A stretch of 64,000 bases of DNA, from assembly GCA_965197475.1 (NCBI GenBank), contig CBDANF010000003.1:2560001-2624000 (forward strand), written 5' to 3'. A model generated the notes under the pieces. It had not been told where the DNA came from. It saw only the letters and a list, made by a program, of their open reading frames with translations, and searched no databases. The DNA is from Candidatus Poribacteria bacterium (GTDB lineage Bacteria > Poribacteria > WGA-4E > WGA-3G). Position 1 is the stretch's first letter, and every line of letters starts with the position of its first letter. The translations under genes were made by a program, and so were the position numbers. Positions 25,660-29,037 of this stretch are shown here, piece by piece.

Positions 25660-26049
25660 CTAACTCAATTTCACTGCAGTTCCGTACATCTGAAGATAAA
25701 AGTATTGAAAGCTATTTGTATCCAAGTCAATATCTTGCCGCATACTTATAATAGCGTTTGCTTCTAAGAGTGCTGCACGTTTTTTCAGTTCTTCAACTGA
25801 AACGAAAAATGCTTTCTCAAAATCACTCTGACCCACACTCCACTCACCGTACAAAAATCCCCAATCGGCCCGATCCTTTCCCATTTGACCGCTTCTTTTC
25901 ATATCTATGATTTCTGCTTCGTATTGTTTGACGAGTTTAGAAAGGGCATTTGAGAAAATCCCTTTATTTGAGATCTGAAAGTAAACAGGACCAATAATCT
26001 GATAATCCTGTTTAATATCCCCAGTTGTTACAAGAATGTCGCTTCTCAT
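25660..26049 (-). CDS. YbjQ/UPF0145-like (putative heavy-metal-binding) protein
   Basis: VTTGD...Y.I.G.V, EL..RA..L.ANAII, MYGTAVK; GGAGG RBS. Confidence 0.75.
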   Translation of the reverse strand: MRSDILVTTGDIKQDYQIIGPVYFQISNKGIFSNALSKLVKQYEAEIIDMKRSGQMGKDRADWGFLYGEWSVGQSDFEKAFFVSVEELKKRAALLEANAIISMRQDIDLDTNSFQYFYLQMYGTAVKLS

Positions 26050-26222
26050 TTTTACCTCCAAAATTATTACGCAATAAGTAGTTTTGGACTTGCAACAAAC
26101 ATGTAAAAATCGCTACAAACACAGATGTAGACTACATTTCCACTTGTTTTAATTGTGCAACTATGATACAATATAGATAAGAAAGTAGGGGGTTGGTAGC
26201 CCCCTAAATGAACACAAAAAGC

Positions 26223-26289
26223 GAGTTGCTTTTTGACGGTTCTAATCTTATCTGGTATTATATCAGAAATCCGTCAGAAAAAGCAACTC
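26223..26289 (+). promoter_or_regulatory. Transposase promoter enclosed in a long inverted repeat
   Basis: TTGACG-17-TATTAT flanked by gagttgctttttgacgg / ccgtcagaaaaagcaactc. Confidence 0.65.
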
Positions 26290-26308
26290 CTATTTCAAGG
26301 AGTATCTG

Positions 26309-27193
26309 ATGGATTTATTGAAGGTAATGGAGCGTTTTCCTGACCAAGAAGCATGTATTGAGCATTTGGAATATATTCGGTGGCGTGGTGAACCAAGATG
26401 TCCGCATTGTGATAGTCTAAACGTTGCGGAACGGACAGAGACGGAATTGGGACGCATCGGACGCTGGCAATGCCATGATTGCACTGCTACTTTCAAGGTG
26501 ACGTGTGGCACGGTGTTTCACGGGACAAAGATAGCACTTCAGAAGTGGTTTTTGGCGATCTCGTTGATTGTGAATGCGAAGAAGTCGTTATCCAGTTACC
26601 AGTTGAGTCGTGATTTAGACTTGAATCAGAAAACTGCATGGTTTATAATGACTCGTATCCGTGCTGAAATGGCAAAGAAAGGTAGCAACGTGCTATTACA
26701 AGGCATCATAGAGGCTGATGAAACTTACATCGGGGGTAAACCTCGCAAGCCGAACAAGAAAGCAGATGCGGAGCCTGCCAAGCGTGGTCGTGGCACTGAT
26801 AAAGACGCAATCATCGGGGCTGTCCAACGCGGTGGGAAAGTTGTAGCACAACTTGCAAGGGATTTGACAGGACGGACTATTTTAGACTTTATCCGAAGAG
26901 CCGTGAAAGTTCAGGATTCGGAGTTGATGACCGATGAATATAATGCTTATCTCGCACTCGGTAGAGATATGAAGCATCATATCATCAATCATCAAGAGCA
27001 ATTTGTTGACGGTGATGTCCACACAAACACGATTGAGGGGTTTTGGTCGCTTCTCAAACGCGCTTGGTATGGTTCACATCACCACTATTGGACTGAATAT
27101 ACGCCCCTGTATGTCGCAGAGGCGTGCTACAAGTATAACTATAGGAGCATTGACAGCATCTTTGATAAGTTTGTTAATGAGAGTATGAGATGA
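26309..27193 (+). CDS. IS1595-family transposase
   Basis: Zn ribbon CPHC..CHDC, SSYQLSRDL..QKTAW HTH, EADETYIGG, TDEY..Y, NH, HTNTIEGFWSLLKR. Confidence 0.96.
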   Translation: MDLLKVMERFPDQEACIEHLEYIRWRGEPRCPHCDSLNVAERTETELGRIGRWQCHDCTATFKVTCGTVFHGTKIALQKWFLAISLIVNAKKSLSSYQLSRDLDLNQKTAWFIMTRIRAEMAKKGSNVLLQGIIEADETYIGGKPRKPNKKADAEPAKRGRGTDKDAIIGAVQRGGKVVAQLARDLTGRTILDFIRRAVKVQDSELMTDEYNAYLALGRDMKHHIINHQEQFVDGDVHTNTIEGFWSLLKRAWYGSHHHYWTEYTPLYVAEACYKYNYRSIDSIFDKFVNESMR

Positions 27194-27199
27194 GTGAAA

Positions 27200-27535
27200 C
27201 TAAAGGTACCCAGGGCGTTTCTTTGCATGATCCGCGGGTTCAGGCGGTGCTTGCAGCACAGATGGCGGAAGCTCGAATGTCTTTTGATCCGAATTCAAAG
27301 CTTCGAGAATATTTTGGAACAATGTATAGCAATCTGACTCGGATTGGAAGATGCCCAAATTGTAGAGAAAAGTTGATTGGTTCGATCCATGAGCGTCTAC
27401 ATGTTTCAACAGAGTCAGATTGAACAAGTTTGATTCGTTGTTCTTGATGATCACAATTTCATCATAAATATTAAGATTTACGGCTAATGGACAAAATCCA
27501 GTGATTTGTTCAGGTTTTGGAAATATGATTAACAT
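27200..27535 (-). CDS. Conserved IS passenger protein of unknown function (111 aa)
   Basis: AAAGGA RBS and ATG 27535 (MLIIFPKPEQITGF..); paralogous N-terminus at 28087. Confidence 0.6.
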   Translation of the reverse strand: MLIIFPKPEQITGFCPLAVNLNIYDEIVIIKNNESNLFNLTLLKHVDAHGSNQSTFLYNLGIFQSESDCYTLFQNILEALNSDQKTFELPPSVLQAPPEPADHAKKRPGYL

Positions 27536-27583
27536 GATAGTTCCTTTGTGAGTTAGAGGGGACAGGGGCACCTCGTTGTTGGG

Positions 27584-27820
27584 TTAGTCTGTTTTCTTTC
27601 GGTTTACATACCGTTTGATACACCAAGCGGTGAATCTTGCCGACAGAAAAATAATAGGTATGCCGACAATTTGGGCTACCAATGCTACTAATGCGTATTC
27701 TCGAGCACCGAGAACAGTGACTATAGATCCAATGATAGCGAAAAACAAAAGCCAGTTTTTCAACGTGTATTTTTGCTTATAGTAAGCAAATACAAGAAGT
27801 GGCCACACTAAAAGTACCAT
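27584..27820 (-). CDS. Small membrane passenger protein
   Basis: 78 aa, three hydrophobic segments, AAGGGGA RBS. Confidence 0.6.
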   Translation of the reverse strand: MVLLVWPLLVFAYYKQKYTLKNWLLFFAIIGSIVTVLGAREYALVALVAQIVGIPIIFLSARFTAWCIKRYVNRKKTD

Positions 27821-27880
27821 GATATTCCCTTATGGTAAGGGTTGTACGTGTTTTGTTTATAGGATCACGTTGTTTAACCT

Positions 27881-27959
27881 TAACGTTGTTCCCGATCTCA
27901 TTCGGTTTGGTAGGGACTGCCTCAAGCGAGACAGATGAGATTCCCTACCAACAACGTTA
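27881..27959 (-). ncRNA. Putative pseudoknotted leader RNA, copy A
   Basis: P0 27950-59/27881-90 (10 bp), P1 27942-49/27909-16 (8 bp), pseudoknot P2 27935-41/27895-901 (7 bp), hairpin P3 27917-34; begins just after the -10 box. Confidence 0.7.
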
Positions 27960-27963
27960 GGAT

Positions 27964-27993
27964 AGTATAACATGTGGGAGAAAAGAGAGTCAA
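27964..27993 (-). promoter_or_regulatory. Inward-facing sigma70 promoter at IS right end A
   Basis: TTGACT-18 bp (ending TGn)-TATACT; conserved at 28925-28954. Confidence 0.75.
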
Positions 27994-28039
27994 GTGAAAA
28001 ATTCAATGGCTTGTTGCAAGTCCAAAACTACTTATTGCG

Positions 28040-28087
28040 AAGTGAAAAATCAACAGGATCGGAAGGCGGCTTGAATATTACCCACAT
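28040..28087 (-). pseudogene. Truncated paralog of the 27200-27535 passenger gene
   Basis: MWVIFKPPSDPVDFSL vs MLIIFPKPEQITGFCPL, behind the same upstream spacer and RBS; cut at the IR. Confidence 0.6.
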
Positions 28088-28143
28088 GGGTTTAGTCTCC
28101 TTTGGGGTTAGAGGGGACAGAGTCCCCTCGTTGGTTGGAATTG

Positions 28144-28533
28144 CTAATACCCGTATGGAGAATCAGCAGCTGAAATTAAAATTATCCAAAGTCCCACCAT
28201 AGTGCCAGTTCCAATAACACATCCTATTGTAGCATGTGTTATTTGGTCGTTTTTCACAAGTTTTTGATAAATGCTTGTGTAATAAGCAACATATTCTGGT
28301 GATTTTCCAAGCAATTTTTCTGGTAGTACCGTTGGTGTGACAACATACGCAATTAACATACCGGTAACACCAAGTAGACAACCAACAGTTCCCCATATTT
28401 GAGTGTTTGCAAGTGTTGCATCACGTCGTGCATCAAATATTGCTTGCGCAGCATCACTTGTTTGTTGTGCAAGTGTGAGATATGGCGTAGTGAATAACAT
28501 CACAACCATTATAAACGACAAAGTTTTCATCAA
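28144..28533 (-). CDS. Secreted/membrane passenger protein
   Basis: Signal peptide plus two hydrophobic helices, GKSPEY..YY..Y motif, AAAGGA RBS. Confidence 0.7.
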   Translation of the reverse strand: MMKTLSFIMVVMLFTTPYLTLAQQTSDAAQAIFDARRDATLANTQIWGTVGCLLGVTGMLIAYVVTPTVLPEKLLGKSPEYVAYYTSIYQKLVKNDQITHATIGCVIGTGTMVGLWIILISAADSPYGY

Positions 28534-28600
28534 TGTTCCTTTTGTGAGGTAAAATGTGTATGTAGGGGATCAAAAGACCCCCTACATGTTTGCAAGCGGA

Positions 28601-28732
28601 TTATTTACACCGCTTGTGAGGTTTGACAGTTTCTTTCACCGTTGTGGCGGGACGGCGTTTGTCCGTGCCTTTGGGAAGGAACCGTCCGTCTTTGGCATCG
28701 CGTACACGCGTGCCAGTGGCTTTTTTAGCCAT
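28601..28732 (-). CDS. Small basic passenger protein (43 aa)
   Basis: GAGGT RBS, MAKKATGTRVRDAKDGRFL..RRPATTVKE; resembles the small 'RDA..G.F...P.TT..E' proteins of mobile elements. Confidence 0.6.
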   Translation of the reverse strand: MAKKATGTRVRDAKDGRFLPKGTDKRRPATTVKETVKPHKRCK

Positions 28733-28839
28733 AGTATACCTCACTTTGCTTGAGATAAATTGGTGCATAGCGTATTTCCAGTGCGTTATGCACTGTTCAA
28801 GCATATAAAATTGATACGTTAAACGGGTATCGTTCGTAG

Positions 28840-28916
28840 GTTCGTTTACACCTTTCTATGGGTGAGGGCAGGACACAACACAAGGAGTGTTGCGATAGAA
28901 ATCCTGCCCAACGAAC
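28840..28916 (-). ncRNA. Putative pseudoknotted leader RNA, copy B
   Basis: P0 28910-16/28840-46, P1 28902-09/28866-73 (8 bp), pseudoknot P2 28895-901/28853-59 (7 bp), hairpin P3 28874-94. Confidence 0.7.
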
Positions 28917-28924
28917 TTGAGAAT

Positions 28925-28954
28925 AGTATAACATGGAAAGAATTTGAGTGTCAA
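28925..28954 (-). promoter_or_regulatory. Inward-facing sigma70 promoter at IS right end B
   Basis: TTGACA-18 bp (ending TGn)-TATACT. Confidence 0.75.
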
Positions 28955-29037
28955 GTGAAAAATTTGAGAAAAAATTTCAAGTCCAAAACTACTCATTGCG
29001 TTATCTTTTATCATTATCCAAAAATAAAGGTATACTT

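Follow-up and report, generated by a model that had tools for sequence, protein, structure and literature searches.

How can an insertion sequence (IS) keep one and the same front end while the genes behind it change, and what would that front end do for them? The question is raised by positions 26070 to 29000 of a 64,000-nt stretch of DNA from a Candidatus Poribacteria bacterium (assembly GCA_965197475.1, contig CBDANF010000003.1), hereafter the window, which is C3:2560001-2624000 of a 5.70-Mb assembly in three contigs. Two right arms of IS1595-family elements, IS-A and IS-B, follow one another there, and an initial annotation, made from the letters of the window, had described them as a subgroup with a fixed passenger operon and a variable cargo slot that might serve gene capture. 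The best overall explanation, to which we assign a probability of roughly 60%, is that the locus holds nested, modular transporter IS whose modules are exchanged by recombination at short joints, whose passenger operons would be controlled by a portable leader RNA, whose hairpin linkers would uncouple the last gene from the cargo, and whose right-arm transcripts would damp the transposase gene from the antisense strand.

A nested pair of IS1595-family elements

Window positions 26070 to 28039 hold an intact IS1595-family element of 1,970 bp, here named type A or IS-A, whose six copies in the genome are all 100% identical to one another (Table 1). Its transposase matches the ISXO2-like DDE family PF12762 (E value 1.6e-36, 126 bits against a cut-off of 27) and the N-terminal zinc ribbon PF12760 (1.4e-9, 38 bits against a cut-off of 25.4). 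The core of the inverted repeat (IR) occurs three times in the window against 0 occurrences expected, and is present in identical form at both ends of six element types, A to F. Five of these (A to E) carry passengers, and this group was found here only in one bacterial phylum. IS1595-family elements generate an 8-bp target-site duplication; one A copy has TTTAGTTT at both ends, and the remaining A copies carry swapped 8-mers. Passenger genes lie inside the IRs of identical full-length copies (six of A, six of B, four of C and four of D), which is the hallmark of a transporter IS (tIS). Every property of the IS1595 family and of tIS that we tested for is present in type A, and the initial annotation was right to point to passenger-carrying IS1595 members here.

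IS-B is less complete than that annotation had supposed: window positions 28040 to 29000 are only the right 961 bp of a 2,296-bp type B element (B positions 1336-2296), with gene X of B cut after 16 codons, although the arm layout described for it is there. Full-length X_B has 90 aa, as the six intact B copies at other places of the genome show. The A and B arms are collinear over their last ~90 nt, with three direct repeats that are each 961 nt apart. The other half of this B copy (B positions 1-1343) lies at C3:2476084-2474742, adjoining an oppositely oriented A copy, and the two halves overlap by B positions 1336-1343, the 8 bp AAGTGAAA. The window copy of A is flanked by AATTATTA on the left and AAGTGAAA on the right, and these flanks are exchanged at the inverted A copy (C3:2472772-2474741). 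Type A inserted into gene X of type B, duplicating 8 bp, and an inversion of ~113 kb by recombination between the two inverted A copies, which accounts for the exchanged 8-mers, separated the halves of B. Three more A copies (C3:241932, 1216981 and 2786536) show a three-way flank exchange involving TTTATTTT, TTTAGTTT and TTAAAATT, so that rearrangements of this kind are frequent here. Nested insertion and exchanged flanks together are a record of IS-driven inversions in the genome.

On its left, IS-A adjoins a YbjQ-like gene (PF01906, 4.6e-5; window 25660-26061, minus strand). The start codon is an ATG at 26050 with GGAGG ahead of it, 19 nt from the left tip of IS-A; the insertion therefore replaced the sequence upstream of the ribosome-binding site of this gene.

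Right-arm modules are mosaic and meet at fixed joints

Read from the IR inward, the right arms of types A to E consist of a promoter, a leader RNA, zero to two cargo genes, a linker with a hairpin and a Shine-Dalgarno site, and a last small gene, which is X in IS-A and ends 6 to 10 nt (6 nt in IS-A) short of the transposase stop codon, the two genes being convergent. All of the parts that the initial annotation listed are present in the A and B arms, the two stop codons of IS-A do converge as it stated, and the cargo differs as described, with the arms otherwise collinear. Against the 78-aa protein of A and the 43-aa basic and 129-aa proteins of B, type C carries a frameshifted DUF805 gene, type D a 124-aa protein, and type E a homolog of the 43-aa protein together with an intact DUF805 protein (4.8e-22). 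Homolog searches returned only small families, of 33 clusters (129-aa protein) and 25 clusters (78-aa protein), whose members bear no other name than "hypothetical protein"; one protein so named comes from a Candidatus Poribacteria record. Two copies of a variant, B2 (2,420 bp; C3:2858111-2860530 and C2:1207542-1209961), have ~165 nt in place of ~41 nt within the 129-aa gene, leaving a chimeric 98-aa open reading frame (ORF). Between the leader and the 43-aa gene of IS-B lies a conserved hairpin-like element (window 28735-28810, minus strand) whose stems are GCUUGA/UCAAGC (outer) and GUGCAUA/UAUGCAC (inner). This element has no Rfam match and accompanies the 43-aa gene in several genomes; it is also found in type E and at loci L071, L073 and L078.

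In pairwise comparisons the types have only three conserved blocks, the transposase arm (75-95% identity), a spacer island of ~45 nt (85-95%) and the right tip. By the same comparisons type E proves to be a four-way mosaic: its transposase arm is closest to C and D (95.5%), its DUF805 gene and spacer to C (96%), its leader and 43-aa gene to B (78%) and its right tip to A (93%). The restriction of conservation to three blocks and the mosaic composition of E indicate that modules have been shuffled. The cargo slot has fixed edges. The conserved hairpin block starts 0 to 12 nt past the cargo stop codon in eight of the nine elements read, and on the 5' side the similarity of C and D stops just past the leader, an outcome that agrees with the check proposed in the initial annotation. 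Neither recombinase or integrase ORFs nor att-like sites were seen in types A to E (for IntI, the search covered the elements only).

The earlier picture of a constant frame around exchangeable cargo needs to be redrawn. A leader and a spacer are present in each of types A to E, although one relative has neither cargo nor spacer, and gene X is no part of a constant frame: A, B and E share only about 25% amino-acid identity in X, D is distant, and C has an unrelated 83-aa ORF in the X slot. Absence of X or of the spacer from other copies, which the initial annotation had set down as telling against its platform, does occur, for X in type C and for the spacer in that one relative; random cargo boundaries, which it had named as well, do not. 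What survives of the platform is the swapping of modules at fixed joints; a constant gene X and an active capture mechanism find no support in the elements.

We consider it probable that the modules are exchanged by recombination at short conserved joints and not by a dedicated cassette recombinase. Recombination of this kind between co-resident copies would account for the mosaics without an active capture mechanism. The elements offer a worked example of how passenger-carrying IS diversify, with several variants in one genome that differ by swapped leader, cargo, last gene and transposase arm, and module swapping at short conserved joints lies on the path from IS to transposon.

A promoter and structured leader RNA common to unrelated mobile elements

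In types A to E, promoters of sigma-70-type consensus lie about 45 to 75 nt from the IR tip. The leaders of all five types fold independently into one shape of ~80 nt, with four helices (P1 to P4), a bulge-loop pseudoknot of 7 bp and folding z-scores of -4.3 to -5.3; in each of them the P4 loop, read by eye, is perfectly complementary to the bulge. MAFFT failed to align the five leaders, and a first model was built from A, C and D, followed by Infernal realignment; model R1 missed or barely detected the B- and E-type leaders. In a 10-variant alignment fitted to the model, 93.7% of the cells in leader helices pair, as against 71.0% in shuffled controls and 35 to 46% with slid partners; 23 of the 29 pairs change on both sides, and G-U pairs occur in the helices. 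Among 82 distinct leader copies, 70 have a bulge-loop complement of at least 7 bp, realized by 58 different sequence pairs. P2 is nearly invariant (GGUAGRGA), P1, P3 and the pseudoknot drift freely, and the junctions vary, a pattern that does not by itself identify the ligand pocket of a riboswitch.

The leader is also fixed in relation to its promoter. Of the 82 copies, 67 (4 of 82 when shuffled) have ahead of them a promoter that agrees with the consensus at 10 or more of its 12 positions, and in 55 of the 82 the -10 hexamer ends 5 to 6 nt before the start of the model, so that the transcript should begin at the foot of P1. Metatranscriptome contigs from four runs of one study cover A and B, and one of them has the uninterrupted B form.

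With model R2, 906 leader matches (a lower bound) were found in 97 of 112 genomes of the bacterial family, up to 33 per genome. At E ≤ 1e-5 the leader was found in 80 of 96 genomes of family f1, 4 of 27 of family f3 and 0 of 27 of the remaining families. An exact-pattern scan of 185,579 species genomes gave at least 99 stretches; among the 80 matches listed, 65 were from Poribacteria and 15 were not, and one of these 15, from an unclassified metagenome-assembled genome, passes the leader model. The window's own genome has 28 matches, of which 24 lie in right arms of types A to D, two on a decayed copy, and two precede a tnpB gene or a tnpB remnant.

Downstream contexts were read at 28 loci from other genomes, and 26 proteins were scanned against Pfam. 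Four were TnpB, two were IS1595 transposases in the leader's direction and one was DDE_Tnp_4 (IS5-like); others were DUF805 proteins (two) and single GIY-YIG, MvaI/BcnI nuclease, ThuA and TPR proteins. The other 13 of the 26 have no Pfam family and are small, several of them secreted-looking by eye. The promoter-leader is a lineage-wide module and is not specific to IS1595. The initial annotation, which had treated promoter and RNA as a feature of an IS1595 subgroup, did not anticipate that they also precede tnpB, other transposase and nuclease genes.

Two places in the window's own genome illustrate these contexts. At C3:2860868-2862162 a 401-aa TnpB gene follows a leader variant, and at C3:2864061-2864915 a leader and the first tnpB codons are followed by a solo 127-aa X homolog and a 153-aa secreted-looking protein. 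In some IS1595 relatives in other genomes (loci L074, L078 and L084), an IR, promoter and leader stand upstream of a transposase gene on the same strand, in L078 with a 42-aa basic gene in between; either side of the transposase gene can therefore carry the module.

An Rfam 15 scan of types A to E and three relatives gave no match near gathering scores (best E values 0.11 for SraB, within the 129-aa gene, and 2.7 to 3.9 on the leader). Our literature search turned up no account of this RNA, or of such IS in Poribacteria, and the supplementary tables of RNA-motif surveys could hold it. Nor did that search yield a paper on an RNA family named Poribacteria-1, and the leader matches no Rfam family. 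An abundant structured RNA with unusually clear covariation and no Rfam match is thus brought to light, and together with its promoter it offers a compact natural expression part. Since unrelated mobile elements share the leader, it may show how mobile DNA is switched on in an uncultured sponge symbiont.

Gene X and a possible control of transposition

Gene X of IS-A encodes a member of an orphan family. A profile search of 1.84 billion representative proteins gave 53 clusters at E ≤ 1e-3, mostly of about 90 to 115 aa, of which 27 remained at E ≤ 1e-10. The 26 members aligned have a recurrent D-x-H-x-S-N-x-S loop and a disordered tail that often ends in G-Y/F-L or (D/E-)L-P-K-V, and these C-terminal tips suggest a docking motif. 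Membership was scored with a profile of external homologs only, this genome's proteins having been left out: X_A scored 107 bits, X_E 104, X_B 67 and X_D 10.6, and the 83-aa ORF of type C gave no score. X_D is linked to the family through a relative: it has 31% identity (E 4e-5) with the X protein found there, and that protein in turn fits the family profile with 96.5% probability. On these scores D is counted as a distant member and C as a non-member. Judged by its profile, X is a real but rare family, present in 19 of 176 genomes of the phylum.

Structure prediction with AlphaFold 2 gave a model with five beta strands and a C-terminal helix at a mean confidence (pLDDT, predicted local distance difference test) of 87.4. 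Foldseek returned 0 matches to this model at E ≤ 0.001 (the best, at 0.22, was the WGR domain of PARP2), a wide VIA fold search gave a best Z score of 5.9 and none of 8 or above, and the clusters returned by the ESM Atlas, all of them unnamed, scored 0.84, too low to be of use. A single-protein search of genome contigs with X_A gave 93 pattern matches, 0 of them confirmed, and a homolog search with the X alignment gave eight proteins, none of them named or with a Pfam domain. A predicted complex of transposase and X scored 0.01, which weighs neither way.

These properties bear on the possibility that the right-arm operon mainly controls transposition, with X as a cofactor or inhibitor, an antisense RNA over the transposase gene, and cargo that merely hitch-hikes. 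The position of X, last in its operon and 6 to 10 nt from the convergent transposase stop codon, would suit this role, as would its tail, whose recurrent tips resemble those of docking tails. Between gene X and the transposase gene the minus strand has no terminator-like site; the only strong terminator-like hairpins of that strand are at 26186-26303, just past the transposase start. IS1595 transposase matches, counted within flanks of ~1.5 kb on each side, accompany 13 of the 24 X places in other genomes, and one relative has promoter, leader and X without cargo or spacer. X remnants are also kept in shorter IS1595 copies of another genome. Nevertheless, type C and some relatives do without X, seven type F copies of 1,139 bp do without any passenger, X occurs away from any transposase match (L037, L040), and the fold searches are uninformative. 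We consider transposition control as the main role of the operon unlikely, and return below to an antisense effect as one part of the favored explanation.

The remnants just mentioned are in genome G105, where six IS1595 copies of ~1.3 to 1.6 kb (L043, L057, L058, L062, L064 and L066) have lost all of X except a C-terminal piece, which lies past the transposase gene and before the right IR. Going by their sequences, these short copies look like deletion derivatives of passenger-carrying elements.

On the opposite strand, a plus-strand ORF of 77 aa (27190-27423) runs antisense to gene X, and each of types A to E has such an ORF of 61 to 90 aa, with a start ATGA that overlaps the transposase stop codon. 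We rejected these ORFs as genes: they have no likeness between types, whereas the gene that they face, X, belongs to a conserved family and has a confidently predicted fold. Their origin is probably chance.

The linker hairpin and the cargo slot

The spacers of A and B are 76% identical. Each element's spacer runs in the order 8-bp GC hairpin, YAAC, Shine-Dalgarno site and start codon of the last gene, and there is no U-tract after the hairpin. The stem covaries in other genomes (GAGGGGAC/GTCCCCTC, GAGGGGAG/CTCCCCTC and GTGGGGC/GCCCCAC). Across this genome 20 sites fit the hairpin pattern, all of them within types B to E and none elsewhere; the variant of A falls outside the pattern. A hairpin directly before a ribosome-binding site would fit an intercistronic mRNA element, and such a linker would uncouple the stability or translation of X from that of the cargo.

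A slot of this kind also calls to mind integron-like capture, in which the spacer hairpin and the 3' end of the leader would be recombination sites for cargo cassettes. The fixed cargo boundaries (0 to 12 nt before the hairpin block in eight of nine, and just past the leader), the confinement of the hairpin to these elements in this genome, and the 85-95% identity of a covarying hairpin between genes that cannot be aligned are what this hypothesis would predict. Integron attC sites span roughly 57 to 141 nt and have extrahelical bases. The stem-loop that follows the cargo here, at about 19 to 24 nt, is far shorter, and it directly precedes a Shine-Dalgarno site, as an mRNA element would. Besides DUF805, the only Pfam match in the ORFs of A to E is the DDE transposase, with no integrase or recombinase among them, and one relative has neither cargo nor hairpin. 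Integron-like capture therefore seems to us improbable.

Even less credible is that cargo and X form a toxin-antidote pair, a membrane toxin and a cytosolic antidote that stabilize the IS. The cargo proteins are mostly small and by eye hydrophobic or secreted-looking, and X is a small soluble alpha/beta protein whose weak fold matches (Z 3.9 to 5.3) include immunity and anti-CRISPR proteins. These cargo families are unrelated to one another (78-aa, 129-aa, DUF805, 124-aa and lipoprotein-like), however, X pairs with any of them or with none, and copies persist in which the cargo gene is broken, as in type C and B2.

Least likely of all is that the leader acts as DNA, a protein-binding palindrome or neutral repeat with covariation due to inverted-repeat maintenance: it is always found with mobile DNA and, in IS1595 contexts, near an IS end, but its position is fixed to the promoter and not to the IR (for 55 of 82 copies the -10 hexamer ends 5 to 6 nt ahead), its contexts include IS605-like and non-IS ones besides IS1595, its matches are strand-specific relative to the downstream gene, and its G-U pairs and bulge-loop pseudoknot, with 58 compensated pairs, fit a strand-specific single-stranded fold.

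Table 1. Features of IS-A and of the IS-B remnant in the window, and element types A to F in the genome. Copies of types A to E are full-length copies at ≥97% identity; a dot marks features without strand.
Feature	Position	Strand	Remarks
8-bp flank AATTATTA, half of swapped IS-A target-site duplication	26062..26069	.	right flank of inverted A copy
IS-A left inverted repeat, 29 nt	26070..26098	.	pair 100% complementary
IS-A transposase, 294 aa, IS1595/ISXO2-like DDE and zinc ribbon	26309..27193	+	Pfam
IS-A gene X, 111 aa, orphan family	27200..27535	-	ATG supported by family alignment
IS-A conserved spacer, 46 nt	27538..27583	-	GC hairpin, then Shine-Dalgarno site of X
IS-A cargo, 78-aa hydrophobic protein	27584..27820	-	by eye; no Pfam family
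IS-A leader, second copy of P1 3' strand	27867..27874	-	
IS-A leader RNA, 77 nt	27882..27958	-	P1, P2, 7-nt bulge, P3, P4; P4 loop pairs with bulge
IS-A promoter, TTGACT-18-TATACT	27964..27993	-	inward-facing
IS-A right inverted repeat, 29 nt	28011..28039	.	pair 100% complementary
8-bp AAGTGAAA, target-site duplication of A in IS-B gene X	28040..28047	.	overlap of B halves
IS-B gene X, first 16 codons, cut by IS-A	28040..28087	-	comparison with intact B copies
IS-B spacer	28093..28138	-	perfect 8-bp GC hairpin and Shine-Dalgarno site
IS-B cargo 2, 129-aa protein	28144..28533	-	hydrophobic N-terminus and segments (by eye); no Pfam family
Second intercistronic hairpin, between IS-B 43-aa and 129-aa genes	28558..28582	-	
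IS-B cargo 1, 43-aa basic protein	28601..28732	-	homologs in type E and relatives
IS-B leader RNA	28837..28919	-	
IS-B promoter, TTGACA-18-TATACT	28925..28954	-	inward-facing; 11/12 consensus matches
IS-B right inverted repeat	28975..29000	.	IR comparison
Type A			1,970 bp; 6 copies
Type B			2,296 bp; 6 intact copies and 5 partial or interrupted places
Type C			2,298 bp; 4 copies
Type D			2,253 bp; 4 copies
Type E			2,404 bp; 1 copy
Type F, passenger-free			1,139 bp; 7 copies

A possible switch and the proposed working

In 43 of 78 leader copies (2 of 78 shuffled flanks) at least 7 identical nt of the P1 3' strand are repeated downstream, mostly at a start-to-start spacing of 14 to 16 nt. P1 varies widely between copies, and the repeat match therefore amounts to a three-way covariation. 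In the tnpB copies, the linker between the repeats is GGAG-like, resembling a Shine-Dalgarno site, and the second repeat contains the ATG of the TnpB-matching ORF; minimum-energy folds leave this second site, at the tnpB start, open. We tentatively propose, as a suggestion that may well prove wrong, that the leader is a portable expression-control module, in which the base-paired 5' end would stabilize the transcript and the duplicated P1 3' strand would act as a translational switch. P1 would pair with the first copy of the strand in one state, leaving the start region free, and with the second copy in the other, leaving the start region paired.

Transcripts from the right-arm promoter would run antisense into the transposase gene and damp it. 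Combined with the exchange of modules between co-resident copies at short conserved joints and with the uncoupling hairpin, this gives the overall explanation stated at the outset.

Several observations weigh against this explanation. A promoter scan of the window by itself is not enriched (9 sites, as against 7.5 +/- 2.7 in shuffled sequence), and the promoter call is therefore based on conservation across copies. The alignments behind the pair counts were fitted to the model, which favors structure, and the leader of type E escapes model R2 at E ≤ 0.01, which makes the leader counts lower bounds and the model biased to A/C/D-like copies. The metatranscriptome contigs show no starts, strand or level and may contain DNA, and some of them extend past the predicted transcript start. 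As to the switch, 24 of the 78 copies have a P1 repeat of fewer than 6 nt or none, and outside tnpB contexts it has no obvious start codon, so that it may be a vestige. At 11 of the 24 X places there is no transposase match nearby, and X is missing from type C and from most leader contexts, which means that it is not needed for the leader to work. Finally, homologous recombination at joints of 45 nt is an assumption.

A wider version of the proposal is that of a new RNA-switch class confined to the sponge-symbiont lineage and adopted by at least three transposon families, by homing and restriction nucleases and by passenger operons, all answering to one host signal or factor through competition between the two copies of the P1 3' strand, and with X as a new small docking protein. 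We regard this combination as unlikely. If it were true, at least three unrelated transposon families (IS1595, the tnpB-bearing IS605 type and the IS5 type) would be coupled to a common control, and X would link the element to that control or to the transposase.

Relation to known systems

Integron cassettes resemble the arrangement described here in having variable genes in a fixed slot behind one promoter, with a hairpin-forming element after each. Types A to E differ in having no integrase in the elements and a hairpin far below attC size that abuts a ribosome-binding site.

The 5' stem-loop of IS200 tnpA and the RNA-OUT of IS10 are cis-regulatory leader and antisense controls of transposase genes. 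As in those systems, an RNA structure starts the mobile-element transcript here and could limit translation, and convergent transcription could give antisense control. The Poribacteria leader, with four helices and a pseudoknot, is far more elaborate. It is also common to at least three unrelated transposase families and to nuclease genes, and in types A to E it drives the passengers, not the transposase gene. IS605-orfB RNA motifs lie upstream of tnpB, as do some of the leader copies, whereas the leader has no Rfam 15 match.

ISfinder names passenger-carrying subgroups of the IS1595 family. The elements described here share with tIS the short IRs, the single ISXO2-type DDE transposase and the passengers inside the IRs. 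They depart from described tIS in that a promoter of their own, a pseudoknotted leader and hairpin linkers join the passengers into a modular operon, in that several module-swapped variants co-reside in one genome, and in that the cargo is small and has no resistance or metabolic genes or known functions. According to the TnCentral preprint, tIS are restricted to the IS1595 and IS66 families.

A further parallel is promoter reuse (PMC3575422), in which very similar promoter regions stand before unrelated genes, often close to mobile-element genes. The likeness lies in a similar promoter that recurs before unrelated genes, within and between related genomes, and the difference in the reused unit, which is here a promoter together with a structured leader of ~80 nt. 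The helices of this leader drift under compensation, so that the conserved unit is the RNA fold and not the DNA sequence only.

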